Source of the DNA: Euglena gracilis
Taxonomy: Eukaryota
DNA: 64,000 nt
Direction of reading: 5' to 3'
NCBI GenBank assembly: GCA_039621445.1
Contig: CP154954.1
Span: forward strand, 31,210,012-31,274,011
Of the stretch, positions 15,501 through 57,681 are shown one piece after another. The notes under the pieces were generated by a model that was not told the origin of the DNA, did no database searches, and worked only from the letters and a program-made list of their open reading frames with translations. Every line of letters starts with the position of its first letter. Position 1 is the first letter of the stretch. The position numbers and the translations under genes were made by a program.

Positions 15501-18500
15501 TTCCGTACAACTTTGCAACTCACACAAATGGTGAAAATTCCCTCTCTCCCTGTGGGTGGACCGTTGGGCAAAGATGATTTTGGGTTTGCCGGTTTGGGAT
15601 CATATCACGGAGGGGTGGCTTCAGGCGGAACACGATTCACTCTCTCAAGGATTGGCATGTTCGTGGCAGAAACGGGCAGATTATTTGGCTGGTTGGGGCT
15701 CAACTCATGTGGAATCGGCTGGTTTCCCTTTGGCTGATATGCTCTCTTCTCTGGCGGACCCCCCCTTTCCTTTGTTTTGGATGGAAGGCTTGATCGTTTC
15801 CTTGAAGAGATTTGTGACCAAGCTCTACGAACTGTGCACTTTCCGTGATTCAGTCGCTTTCGCCACCCTGAATGCTGGTGCCTTTGTCGTCTGATTTGGA
15901 AAAAGTTGGTTTTATCAAGTGATGTTCCATTGGTCATGCACAAAGTGGCAGCCTACCTGCGTGCTGTGCCCTTTTTGTCTCGGAGTGCTCATTACAATGT
16001 GGAATGTCGGTTTTGTCATGCCGAGGTCGGTTTTTTGCCCAGGCACATTGTTGGATGTGTGGGATTGTATGAAGTATTGATCAAGGCTTTCTCGGAGGTC
16101 CTGCAAACAGTATCAACAGGTTCACTGGGTTCAATACTGGAAAGGTCGGACTTGGCTGCGGTTCTGCAATCTCAAAATGAGAGGTGGGTCATTGCACTTC
16201 TTCCTGAAGAAAACGTCGTCCGTGTGCGTCATTTTTTTGAGCAAAAAGGTTTCCTTTTGCTGTGTGTTACATGGTCGGGCCTCATCAGTGTACCACATCG
16301 ATTGAGTATGCTTTTCTCCACAAGTGTTCGTTTGGAATTGTGTGCCATAGTATTACGGACATTATCAGCTGCCCCACGAGGATTCTTCACAACATCAGAT
16401 ATCGACATTCCACCGCACACCAATTTTCGGGGTTTGGTGGGTTGGTCAAGCAACGACGCACGTGGGTGCCAACCGTCTTTCCGGGTCCAACGGAGGCTCG
16501 CATGGATCTTGCTTGCACAATTTGGAGGGTGGTCGTTTGTGTTCTTCTCGTTCCTTGTCGGTATACCTCCCCCCCCCGATGTTTGTATCCACCTGACCTA
16601 TTTGATGTAAGGGTTTTTGCTTGTGATGTTAACCATTGTTTTGTCATCTCTAACCATCCTGGGAGAGGCCCTGCATGCGTGCTGTGTGATTGCCACATAA
16701 CAGCTCCCTCGTATTGGCATCTCCATCGCTCCTATTCCGAAGGTGCGCTGTACATCTCAGCAGACTTCGGCTCATCGCCCCTCTAACCTCCAACACAACG
16801 CTTCGATCAGGGTGCTCCACTTCATGTGTTCTTGTGTATGTCTGTAGCTCATGTATCCTCTTCCCCCCCTATTCATCTACCATCGCTATGTCAAGCACCA
16901 AGGGCATGCGCACTTGCTCATTAACCTCTGCCATGGTGTGCTATACACACTGCGATGTACCGTACGGCGATGTACCCTCTGCAATGCGATTTTATGGATT
17001 GCATCGTTTTGGTTGGTGCTGCCCTCTTTCCACCCTGGTCCGACGTGAGTGGTTGTGATGTTTGGGTTGACTCTTTCCGCTCTCGTTTGGTAGGGCTGTG
17101 TTTGTGCTCGAGTTGTTTGTGCTGCCCCCTTCCCGCTCTCGTCCGGTAGGGCTGAGCGTGTGCTGGTGTTGTTCGTGCTGCCTCCTTCCCGCTCTCGTCC
17201 GGTAGGGCTGAGCGTGTGCTTGTGTTGTTCGTGCTGCCTCCTTCCCGCTCTCGTCCGGTAGGGCTGAGCGTGTGCTTGTTTCGTTCGTGCTGCCCCCTTC
17301 CCGCTCTCGTCCGGTAGGGCTGAATTGTTATTTTATTTTATTTTATTTTATTTTTTTTTTCATTTTCCTTCCTTCCCGCAATAAATGCTAAATAAGCCCC
17401 TTTCGCGTTGCCTGTACCCGCCCAGCCTCACCAAACCAACCCAAACCAGTCAATACCTATAAAAAACCCAGTCCCCCCCCCCTGGGGGGGGGGGGGGGGG
17501 TCGGTCAGTGCTTAAGCAATTGCCTGCTTAGGATGCCAATCGATGAGAATATCCTCTTGTAACCTCAAAATAACCTCAAAATTGCACACCCAAAGAGAGG
17601 ATTGGAATCGACCTTGTCAAAGCGCTGCTACTCACAAAAAATAGCAATCGGTTCGGAATCATGGTCCTATCTCTTAGAGGCTGGCTGCTTCCCTCAAATA
17701 AAGCGCATCACAACGGCTATTTCAGAAGCACCAACGTTGATTGCAGCTTGCACACTGACCGTTAAAATTTGTTCGAAACAAAAAATGGGCGTAAAGCTGC
17801 CACACCCAGATTTTTTTAGGACCCGGGAATATCCCGAGGGGTCCAAAAAATCTCAGCGCTTCGCACCAAAAATAGAGGAAATCCCCCCTGGGGAGAGGTT
17901 TCACTCTCACTCAGTCCGAACCCCCCCCTGGGCCTTTAAATTTTAAAAAATCTCTGGGCTGCCAAGAACAGAACGCAGCCCAGCAAAACCTTCTGCGCCT
18001 CGGAGAGGATGGGCTCGCTCTTCCTCAGCAGCTCGGCGCTGGCACACGCCTCTGCCAGGGCAGAACGGGAAGGCCTGGTGGGGGGGTCGACCCCCCCACC
18101 CGGGAGGTGGGGGGGGGGGGTGGGTCAACCCCCCCCACCCACCACAGCATTTGCACCAATTTCGGGGAAACGGGGATTTTGGCCAGAAAAATTTTTGCTT
18201 CTTTTTTGAAAAATGAACCCAAAACACATGATTTTTTGATGGAAAACCACATTTTTTTCACAAAAAAATCTCAAAATTTTCCGTCCTAAAAACTGGGACT
18301 TTTTAGGGGGGGAAACGAAGGTCAAAAAAAGTGGACAAAATTTTGGCACAGTCAAATTTTACTGACATTTTTTCTCGTTGAACTTTTTTGGACTTTGAAT
18401 AACATTTTTTGCTTCAAAAACCTCTCAAAATCACCCTCTTGAGAAAATGTCAAATTTTTTGAAGGTGTGAAAAAATGGGGTTTTGGGTGGGACCCCCTAT

Positions 18501-55700: not shown

Positions 55701-57681
55701 GCACTCTTGCCTTTACCTTCCCATCGATGTACAGAGAGTAGAAATGCCCCCCCCCCCAGAAAATGGCCTCCGGGACAAGATGTACCAATTTTGGCGAGGC
55801 CATGAAAAAGGTTCAAAAGATTGCCAAAAAAAGTCAATCCCGAAATTTTCAGGTTGCCAAAAAAAGGTCATATCAAAACAAACCATTCAAGAAATTGACA
55901 CAATTTCTGTAGGGGTCCCCCAAACCCCCCCCCACCATTTGGCTTCAAGGGGATCTGAAAACATCCGGGCAAGGAGGTATTTTGTGAGCAAGATATGCCC
56001 TGCCACAGGCAATACGTGCCATGTTGCCGCTGATGGTTTGCTTGGTGCGGTTGTGTCTCACCATACCCGTCACTTCTGCAACAGCCGAACGCTCTTTCTC
56101 CACTCTCCGTCGCTTGAAAACTTACCTCCGTTCGCAATTGGGCCAAACAGCAATGAGCCAACATTTCTGTTCCAAACCAAACTTTCTTACGGGAGTGTTT
56201 TTCCTAAAATACCGAAGGAAGTAGTTTCCCCCTTTTCGTTTCAAAAAAGGACCATTTTTTAAGCCTCTTGGATGTCAAAGCACACAAAGACCAATGGTAA
56301 AAGCATTGACTTGTTTGATTGTAACCGTGAATAGAGGCCCGGCGCCAGCCCTGTTTTTCGTGGGTGTGAACACGGAAAACAGGGCATATTTTCAATTCAC
56401 GAAAATATGCCCTGTTTTTCGTGAATAGGTATTCACGAAAAACAGGGCATATTTTCGTGAATACGAATTTTACTGAAATGAACCCCAAAAACCTGTCAAT
56501 CCCATCAATCGAAAGCTCTTCTCAAGGGCTTTTGACAGATGGCCACAGGATTCAGCAATAATGCACACGGCACTTATTTTCAGTGATCGTGTATTCCAAA
56601 ATTCGACATCCTAATTTCTGAAATCCCACACCTCAGGTGCCATACGGCATATCAATCGAAAGCTCTCCCCATGAGCTTTCATTTGGTACCCTCAGAACTC
56701 AGCCACACTGCACAGCGCCCTAAAAATTGCCGATCGCAATGTTCCGGCCCTTTTCGCAAATCCCAAAACCCACTGTTCACCTGCCATGTTTCCCCTTGAT
56801 CGATGGCCCTTCTCAAGGGCTTTCAGCAGATGGCCTTAGATTCCAGCCGTGCTGCATGGTACTCTATTTCAGAAATTCCCCAAATTTGACCAAATGGAAA
56901 GTGTTGCACAAAATACCCCAATTTCTGGCCAAATACCCCCCAAAAAACTGCTCAGATATGATTGCCACATGTCTAAAAACCATTTTGGACACTTTTTGGC
57001 ACTTTTCATTTTGGGTCCCCTGGACGCCGTCTTCCCGCCCGAACCAACCAGACAAGCGTTGGACGCCGGTTCGGGCGTGAAGCCAGAGCCCCAATACACG
57101 GTTTGGGGGTTGTGGCAACATTCGGTCCATGGTGTTTGTGGCTTTCTTCGCCATTTTTGCAAGAGCAGACCGAGGAACAACACAAAGACACCATTTCTAC
57201 AGACCTGTTTCTATTCACAAAAAACAGGGCATATTTTCAATTCACGAAAATATGCCCTGTTTTCCGTGAATAGGTATTCACGAAAAACAGGGCATATTTT
57301 CGTGAATAGGATTTTTGGGGAAAAAATGGCAAAAAAATGCCCGAAAACCTGGCGTGAAGCACACCAACGAAAAACAGGGCAGGCGCCGGGCCTTTCTATT
57401 CACGGTTACAGAAAAATCGTGGGCTATAACCCGTATTCAGGGCGTATAACGGGTCAAGGGCGCCTACGGCGCCCTTGACCCGTTACACGGCCTGAATACG
57501 GGTTATGCCCACGACTTTTATATAAAAAAAATCTGCCTATTGCTGTAGCCAAGCACGTCTAAACCACCTTGCTCTGTGTCATGTTTACAAGGAAGAACTT
57601 CTCTCCCTCCCCCTTGATGCGCTCATGAATGAGTTCATTCAACGGAATGTTTACCGTTCCACAACCTTCGCCCTGCGATGA
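52733..57681 (+). CDS. hAT transposase (ZMYM1/DUF4371-type, TTF-like zinc finger and hAT C-terminal dimerisation domain), intron-containing; possibly a pseudogene
   Basis: MKKFLSPR start; RKFLQIWTEQFPW...DAAFCKIC; GFKNWKKA; WLSPDIQNE; catalytic-type motifs MDETSD, GQGYDGASNM, HCFAHSLNL, TRW, PVTSATAERSFSTLRRLKTYLRSQLGQARLNHLAL; TGA at 57679-57681. Frameshifts near 55075, 55392 and 55550 lie in short homopolymers. A conserved block appears to be missing at the (GT)n tract. Confidence 0.88.
52807..53292. mobile_element. hAT-type MITE (CGATTAATCG family) inserted in the transposase N-terminus
   Basis: TAGGG...CCCTA termini; CTTGTTC duplication. Removal of the element plus one copy restores DNPCSTGSTIQHLRPTVQIGGRKF. 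Confidence 0.8.
53468..53580 (+). other. 113-nt nonconventional intron in hAT transposase
   Basis: AC|aacAAGcattggtt...aatcaatgCTTcccat|G. Removal joins LPLPT|SSKVSGSKAAFADNGFKNWKK in frame. Confidence 0.75.
53772..54056. repeat. (GT)n microsatellite
   Basis: Interrupts the transposase gene. Confidence 0.97.
54355..54568 (+). other. 214-nt nonconventional intron in hAT transposase
   Basis: GGA|taaAAGagttcactt...aagtaactCTTgcacc|ATT, with R|Y...Y|R borders. Removes an in-frame stop and gives VRDLSG|IGLFGVLKDIL. Confidence 0.8.
55096..55203 (+). other. 108-nt intermediate intron (GT-AG plus paired ends) in hAT transposase
   Basis: C|gtcAAGGGTTCA...TGAACCCTTctaag|GA. Perfect 9-bp inverted repeat in the 3+5 register, and also GT...AG. 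Gives QVLR|QVFQPVDRASTVLQ (the upstream frame needs an indel in the T-run near 55075). Confidence 0.7.
55694..56007 (+). other. 314-nt nonconventional intron in hAT transposase
   Basis: GG|agcCAGGGCActcttgc...gcaagataTGCCCTGccaca|G. Gives FLRSCSG|AIRAMLPLMVCLVRLCLTIPVTSATAERSFS. Confidence 0.8.
56145..57550 (+). other. 1406-nt nonconventional intron in hAT transposase containing nested repeats
   Basis: C|aaaCAGCAAT...ATTGCTGtagcc|AA. Gives YLRSQLG|QARLNHLALCHVYKEELL...NEFIQRNVYRSTTFALR*. Relic TSD GGGCCAAA/TAGCCAAG (5/8). Confidence 0.82.

Follow-up and report, generated by a model that had tools for sequence, protein, structure and literature searches.

A 64-kb window of the Euglena gracilis genome (64,000 nucleotides of contig CP154954.1, assembly GCA_039621445.1; positions below count from its first letter) has the features typical of a nuclear genome from a euglenid and contains eight coding interruptions with inverted-repeat ends, distributed over three genes. 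One interruption lies in a gene for a FYVE-finger protein (504-19921, minus strand, N-terminal part in the window), two lie in a PPWD1-like gene encoding WD40 and cyclophilin domains (20538-42661, minus strand), and the other five interrupt a decayed gene for a hAT transposase (53247-57681, plus strand). All eight are nonconventional (NC) introns or NC-intron-type elements, a known class in euglenids. We lean toward the view that they began as insertions of transposons with terminal inverted repeats (TIRs), similar to MITEs (miniature inverted-repeat transposable elements), that duplicated 8 bp of target and came to be removed scarlessly by NC splicing.

The splicing code of NC introns is published. 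Using knock-in and synthetic introns, Nomura et al. (2025, PMC12501133) describe a pairing of CAG at +4 to +6 with CTG at −8 to −6, spacers of 3 nt and 5 nt (6 tolerated), and a purine rule. The resulting formula is N3-CDG..CH'G-N5-6|R; synthetic 50-bp introns were spliced, and CDG..CH'G is reported to match 61.2% of NC introns (PMC12501133). Direct repeats at the junctions are given for 84.4% of introns in the same work (PMC12501133).

The interruption of the FYVE gene (18051-18667, minus strand) is made up of a 609-bp TIR element preceded by 3 nt and followed by 5 nt. Its TIR is a perfect 16-bp repeat beginning CAGGGCAGAACGGGAA, and the flanking 8-mers, GCCGAGGC and GCAGAGGC, agree at 7 of 8 positions. 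In the PPWD1-like gene, 38200-39145 (minus strand) displays CAG..TTG ends, a stem of 9 bp when G-U pairs are allowed (2 bp if only Watson-Crick pairs are counted), and flanks identical at 5/8 positions; a (GAT)n microsatellite lies inside it. The second interruption there, the 89-nt 42402-42490 (minus strand), possesses CGG..CTG ends, a stem of 8 bp (1 bp Watson-Crick), and the flanking 8-mers CTGTTGAT and CCGTTGAC, 6/8 alike. Within the hAT gene, where all five elements are given on the plus strand, AAG..CTT ends are found at 53468-53580 (8-bp Watson-Crick stem, 11 bp with G-U pairs; flanks 4/8), 54355-54568 (7-bp stem by either count; flanks 1/8), and 55096-55203 (9-bp stem by either count; flanks 2/8). 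The remaining two have CAG..CTG ends: 55694-56007 (7-bp stem by either count; flanks 2/8) and the 1406-nt 56145-57550 (8 bp with G-U pairs, 7 bp without; flanks 5/8).

The inverted repeat thus runs from intron position +4 to −6 in all eight interruptions, at the coordinates first proposed in a sequence-only reading of this DNA. Counted with G-U pairs, the stems measure 7-16 bp, compared with 0-3 bp in the identical register of a control set, the PPWD1-like gene's 14 GT-AG introns. Minimum-free-energy folds of three short introns (42402, 53468, and 55096) close with the +4/−6 stem. Borders other than GT/GC-AG are found in 7/8, the exception being 55096-55203, which combines an NC-type stem with GT..AG borders and so appears as an 'intermediate' type. 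A purine is the first exon base after the element in all eight, and in ten of ten when two further NC-type introns of the FYVE gene (described below) are included. Three of the five hAT-gene elements have AAG..CTT rather than CAG..CTG ends, and CDG..CH'G fits four of the eight (three CAG..CTG and one CGG..CTG), leaving the three AAG..CTT elements and one CAG..TTG intron. The latter, 38200-39145, is spliced in RNA though it departs from the formula. The terminal 7-mer AAGRGTT is common to two of the AAG..CTT elements, and alignment of the three revealed similarity limited to the terminal 7-mers.

Compared with known systems, the interruptions resemble euglenid NC introns in their non-GT-AG borders (7/8), the +4 to +6/−8 to −6 stem, the 3/5 spacers, the purine, and the junction repeats, as well as in the removal of two from RNA and the absence of one from the encoded protein. 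They differ from the published code in that three are AAG..CTT, one is CAG..TTG, and one has GT..AG borders as well, and in that five reside in a transposase pseudogene.

Removal of 3 nt, the element, and 5 nt had been proposed to rejoin the flanking protein sequence in all eight cases. The predicted length is exact in six; in the other two, 53468-53580 and 55694-56007, the cut is in frame or compatible with the homologues. Exact length is supported for two by an RNA contig together with a homologue, for one by a 97%-identical protein, and for three by hAT homologues. The exon map of the PPWD1-like gene was built by gapless alignment to P0121, a transcriptome-derived protein, and all 16 introns were mapped, 14 GT-AG and two NC (38200-39145 and 42402-42490). 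Since this full map contains only the two NC introns named by the sequence-only reading, none was missed or cherry-picked there. The gapless P0121 alignment and spliced RNA set the excised length of both exactly. One RNA contig (X17 record 9) joins 40524-40613, 42208-42305, a 36-37-nt microexon, and 42489-42656, with 58 and 89 nt missing between 42305 and 42489; for the other intron, a 255-nt loose end of the RNA contig at 39144 runs on into the sequence left of 38200. A slide of 2 nt is possible at each of the two junctions. The microexon (42365-42401), flanked by a GT-AG intron of 58 nt on one side and the 89-nt NC intron on the other, has coordinates in agreement with the RNA contig. In the FYVE gene, the protein P0146 spans the 18051-18667 junction at precisely the predicted length. 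The three host-gene interruptions are therefore absent from the mature product, two as judged from RNA and one from the encoded protein.

For the hAT gene, the inverted-repeat span plus k nucleotides (k = 0-15) was excised and the product aligned to the homologues P0001-P0004. With P0001, an uninterrupted paralogue, the product of 54355-54568 aligns without gaps at k = 8 alone; the same holds for 56145-57550 with P0002, P0003, and P0004. For 55096-55203, k = 8 gives the highest score. The additional indel that had been postulated upstream of this element is genuine and corresponds to a frame change in a T run. At 55694-56007 the best value is k = 8 with P0002 or k = 11 with P0003 and P0004, and at 53468-53580 the values 8, 11, and 14 keep the frame and score alike.

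Read mapping spanned 39012-53905, placing the elements at 18051-18667, 54355, 55096, 55694, and 56145 outside it; two raw-read runs were sampled to ~5-6%, and the joints considered were the best 15 of 507. The proposed check by RNA bore out the two PPWD1-like introns, which are absent from RNA. The hAT gene yielded almost no RNA reads: depth is 0-0.37 in the bins across 52928-53905 (0-0.22 at 53468-53580), and the sole RNA-run contig there (X17 record 14) extends unspliced from inside 53468-53580 into the exon, with 4 mismatches. These values are consistent with a rival account in which the five hAT-gene interruptions are plain TIR insertions into a dead transposon that were never spliced, so that dividing the 8 bp beyond the element into 3 and 5 would be arbitrary. 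The same account would accommodate the frame changes (at least three) and the (TG)n tract of the gene, as well as the AAG..CTT ends of three of the five elements, which fall beyond the published CDG..CH'G code (PMC12501133). Against it stand the purine that follows the element in 5/5 and the condition of the repeats: the stems retain 7-9 Watson-Crick pairs while the flanks match at chance level (14/40), and neutral decay should erode both. We regard the never-spliced account as doubtful, though substantial enough to be kept in view. Perfect stems of 7-9 bp, decayed flank repeats, and a purine in all five suggest that the hAT-gene elements are old, once-functional introns rather than fresh insertions.

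The flanking repeats were scored by comparing a left 8-mer (5 exon and 3 intron nt) with a right 8-mer (5 intron and 3 exon nt). The identities reported by the sequence-only reading for four interruptions (7/8, 6/8, 5/8, and 5/8) are correct; the remaining four score 4, 2, 2, and 1 of 8, giving 32/64 overall, and 24 shifted registers yield 8-23/64. None of the eight possesses a perfect 8-bp TSD (target-site duplication), nor was an empty site observed for one of them. Two further introns of the FYVE gene on the minus strand were added to this set. The first, 2527-2640, is a 114-nt non-GT-AG intron with a 4-bp stem at +4/−6 (CGCA..TGCG) and flanking 8-mers CTACCGGC and CTGGCGGC, 6/8 alike; the second, 1676-2468, is a canonical NC intron with CAGGGCC..GGCCCTG ends, N3/N5 spacers, a purine after the acceptor, and a 7-bp stem. 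The ten together score 40/80, most of the signal coming from the five host-gene introns (26/40).

Raw identity could also be a by-product of the junction consensus, or chance in a small sample. A pyrimidine|purine preference has been described at both NC junctions (PMC11282704), and the GT-AG introns obtain their identity from consensus alone: 57/136 in the 17 introns scored, with 50/112 for the 14 of the PPWD1-like gene in the same geometry, because AG|GT and AG|G look alike. Raw identity therefore proves little, and partner shuffling is the decisive control. Among GT-AG introns, true partners are no more alike than cross-pairs (3.35 versus 3.39 per 8), but for the ten NC-type introns true partners match at 4.00 positions per 8 versus 2.53 for cross-pairs, the observed 40 was reached in 38 of 20,000 shuffling trials, and register 0 alone stands out (40 versus 15-29 at 12 shifts). 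An origin in consensus or chance is thus very improbable, and the data support the presence of intron-specific 8-nt direct repeats in the flanks that exceed the consensus effect. The original observation is accordingly confirmed as real and well above chance; its interpretation is partly supported, with the hAT label and the explanation of the 3-versus-5 split going beyond the evidence.

Several components of that interpretation have been published. A MITE origin of NC introns was proposed by Milanowski et al. (2014, PMC3935182), TIRs and 'TSD-like' repeats (resembling target-site duplications, TSDs) at NC junctions are treated in a 2024 review (PMC11282704), and MITE-like elements are named as a possible source in the discussion of the splicing-code paper (PMC12501133); the sequence-only reading was right that a transposon origin had been suggested before. 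In addition, a strain-specific, newly gained gapC intron carries eight-nucleotide direct repeats, which its authors ascribe to double-strand-break repair (Milanowski et al. 2016, PMC4770533). The MITE origin, the TSD-like repeats, the 8-nt repeat in a new intron, and the N3/N5 code are thus all previously published. What they imply together is that, given the published code (PMC12501133), 3 + 5 = 8 makes the cut scarless for an 8-bp duplication. The gapC intron (PMC4770533) provides a published datum independent of the window that supports this synthesis. Our literature search did not find it stated that 3 + 5 equals one 8-bp duplication and hence allows scarless removal; supplementary material, among it Table S3 of PMC4770533 and figures on junction repeats in E. 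agilis, lay outside that search and may already show the 8-nt pattern. The equality is a plausible and apparently unprinted refinement of the published hypothesis.

In mechanistic terms, a MITE-like TIR DNA transposon would insert into an exon and duplicate 8 bp of target. NC splicing would then cut 3 nt ahead of the terminal stem and 5 nt beyond it, taking out the element together with one duplication copy's worth of sequence, such that the original exon would remain. Under this scheme the flanking repeats would be transposon TSDs, and the 3+5 ruler would matter since it equals the TSD length. We infer, more tentatively, that NC splicing may be matched to a single class of DNA transposon, which it would excise precisely at the RNA level: a hAT-like insertion into an exon, in either orientation and with a purine at target position 6, would be removed without a scar; this seems possible, if not quite probable.

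The repeat content of the window bears on whether transposition was involved at all. The interruption at 18051-18667 belongs to a dispersed repeat and is 84% identical, across 482 nt, to a copy at 2916. Copies of the family start at 2916, 47402, and 48208 and a partial one at 44862, so that the pieces other than 2916 fall at 44.9, 47.4, and 48.0-48.4 kb. The copy at 2916 has no recognisable second end, hence no TSD can be read from it; when metagenomes were scanned for the family's 20-nt TIR, the two loci retrieved bore no similarity to the window and are chance matches. At 56145-57550 the interruption is composite, with a nested TIR element at ~56320-57410 and a repeat at 56494-56974 that also occurs at 26.7-28.9 kb. 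The nested element has inverted ends of ~34-40 bp with hairpin repeats inside.

An unbiased scan along the whole window for inverted repeats with perfect arms of 8 bp or more and a CAG, CGG, TAG, or AAG start retrieved 115 pairs. Three of these have 8-bp flanks matching at 7/8 or better, compared with a permuted mean of 0.08 and a maximum of 1. One is the intron element itself (18056-18664). Another is a non-coding 394-bp TIR element (28247-28640) in a GT-AG intron, with CAGGCTTTTGC ends and an 8-bp duplication (GTGGCTGT / GCGGCTGT, 7/8). The third (60359-61768, 1410 bp) has TAGGATTGCT..AGCAATCCTA ends with CGGGGGGG on either side (8/8); this duplication is a G run of low complexity and constitutes weak evidence. 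The 9-mer CAGGCTTYT occurs 8 times in the window versus 1.86 expected, a count reached in 0/100 shuffles, and its sites include one end of each NC intron of the PPWD1-like gene and both ends of 28247-28640.

Other TIR elements in the window duplicate 7 bp. A 486-bp MITE (52807-53292) displays TAGGG..CCCTA ends, ATTAATCG subterminal repeats, and CTTGTTC as its 7-bp flanks. Its empty site was captured in another copy, where a contig from a DNA run joins 52799 to 53293 with exactly 7 letters common to both sides. An 826-bp element (5427-6252) carries a 19-bp TIR beginning CAGGGATCC and a perfect 7-nt flanking repeat; an 8-nt reading is obtained only if one end is taken to be without its terminal base.

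A second rival accepts that the NC introns are real but attributes repeats and stems to processes other than transposition: the repeats would derive from staggered double-strand-break repair or RNA-mediated reinsertion, and the stem would have been kept by selection as a signal for splicing, not as a TIR. Such an origin agrees with the published interpretation of the gapC 8-nt repeat as a footprint of double-strand-break repair (Milanowski et al. 2016, PMC4770533), and with stems that outlast the repeat, as would be anticipated from selection on the stem (7 bp with 1/8 at 54355; 9 bp with 2/8 at 55096). It also draws on copy number: five of the eight elements occur only once in the window, and a sixth, 38200-39145, is matched only by its own microsatellite and one weak hit. 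It is confronted by the dispersed repeat at 18051-18667 with its perfect 16-bp TIR, by the non-coding 28247-28640, which possesses the terminal 9-mer of two introns and a 7/8 duplication, and by the empty site at 52807-53292, proof that at least one of the window's TIR elements is mobile. Taken together, we find this rival unlikely.

Several observations weigh against an origin of the introns from 8-bp-duplicating transposons. A TSD accounts for the sum of 8 but not for the split into 3 and 5, so that the earlier proposal that TSD geometry underlies the +4/−6 asymmetry stands for the sum only. Comparison of the introns with TIR families, made within the window, was productive for 18051-18667 and parts of 56145-57550 alone; no second copy was found there for the four shortest interruptions (42402, 53468, 54355, and 55096) or for 55694, and the matches of 38200-39145 are its microsatellite and a weak 76-nt hit. 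The two YAGGG-ended elements with 7-bp duplications indicate that the TIR elements of the window do not all duplicate 8 bp. The five hAT-gene elements score 14/40, approximately the cross-pair level, with 7/24 for the three AAG..CTT elements, and the canonical NC intron 1676-2468 has flanks of just 2/8. A further non-GT-AG intron of the FYVE gene (~2866-4001) is without a +4/−6 stem and has flanks of 3/8. Finally, the sample is small, consisting of 10 introns from one 64-kb window.

The remaining counterpoints concern the superfamily of the source elements. Inverted-repeat and pattern searches of the window did not find an autonomous hAT element with ends resembling the TIRs of the introns. 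CAGGG starts occur in just 2/8 interruptions, and a Watson-Crick TIR of at least 10 bp is present in 18051-18667 alone, the other seven being shorter. The end consensus of hAT elements, YARNG within a TIR of ~10-25 bp, fits 2/8 ends, and the hAT target preference is absent from the 8-mers. These features would suit a third rival, in which the source is an 8-bp-duplicating TIR superfamily other than hAT, possibly specific to euglenozoans, as would the coexistence of other TIR classes with 7-bp duplications. Weighing against a non-hAT source, hAT is the one large superfamily known to unite 8-bp TSDs with CAG/TAG ends, and hAT transposase genes exist in the Euglena genome. We consider the non-hAT source rather unlikely; hAT is the best-fitting candidate superfamily for the source elements. 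That 8-bp TSDs flank hAT elements is documented (PMC3942097), and our literature search, which covered main texts, found no assignment of Euglena NC introns to hAT.

Two candidates for hAT structures in the window were rejected. The ATTAATCG clusters, considered as hAT subterminal repeats, belong to the separate 486-bp MITE; a second, similar cluster lies at 58880-58960. A weak end pair for the element of the hAT gene (52728/57826) has no TSD, and none of the intron TIRs is similar to it.

Elements removed from exonic sequence at the RNA level are known elsewhere. The MITE-derived introners of Micromonas, dinoflagellates, and Amoebophrya likewise are exonic TIR + TSD elements that are removed with restoration of the coding sequence, the TSD forming part of the junction (PMC11282704). 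The difference is that introners employ a (modified) spliceosome and, in Amoebophrya, TSDs of 3-5 nt (PMC11282704), whereas removal here is measured from the stem, is apparently non-spliceosomal, and involves 8 nt. If the link 3 + 5 = 8 holds, the Euglena introns would represent a spliceosome-independent counterpart of introners. Maize Ds, a non-autonomous hAT element, was reportedly described as acting as an intron by Giroux et al. in 1994. The spliceosome excises Ds at cryptic sites, and a scar usually remains. The interruptions resemble it as exonic TIR elements with CAG/TAG ends and an 8-bp TSD that are lost from RNA, with hAT membership here only putative.

The 3+5 link joins the MITE hypothesis of 2014 with the splicing code of 2025 and bears on the origin and abundance of NC introns in Euglena. 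The support that the window lends to this link is consistent and of small sample size. If true, the precise-excision reading would explain why nonconventional introns make up ~70% of Euglena introns, and elements with 7-bp duplications, also present in the window, could not become introns.

The hAT gene was identified from profile matches and homologues. Its dimerisation region matches Dimer_Tnp_hAT at 31.5 bits (cutoff 21.4), two DUF4371 pieces score 27.6 and 24.0 bits, under the cutoff of 32.1 for single exons, and homologues bearing both domains reach a best E = 7e-40. The reading frame changes at least three times, in the T run before 55096 and twice more within 55400-55560, and a (TG)143 microsatellite at 53772-54056 replaces ~40-55 residues of homologous hAT transposases. 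The gene is a host of NC-type elements and at most their putative driver or source.

The FYVE gene lies downstream of the PPWD1-like gene on the same strand and was identified through P0146, which is 97% identical to its product over query residues 38-67. Its first exons occupy 19921-17990 and it resumes at 4104-504, with a 13.9-kb GT-AG intron (4102-17989) within the gene. Eight intervals were checked, comprising three GT-AG introns, 18051-18667, 1676-2468, 2527-2640, ~2866-4001, and one other; in the final interval (q187-q204) the alignment is poor and an exon for 8 residues was not found. A Protein Atlas search with the exon upstream of 18667 returned no usable match.

Open frames of 304, 419, and 654 aa at 10624-16610 (plus strand) lie within the 13.9-kb FYVE intron. 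They gave a sub-threshold endonuclease/exonuclease/phosphatase match and nothing else, the 654-aa frame being without a Pfam hit, and probably represent a nested retroelement. An Rfam search of the whole window returned no match. RNA and DNA reads often break at long C/G runs (46418, 47971-47991, 50659, and elsewhere), and homopolymer palindromes, in which a C run is followed by a G run, form part of very high-depth repeats across the window.

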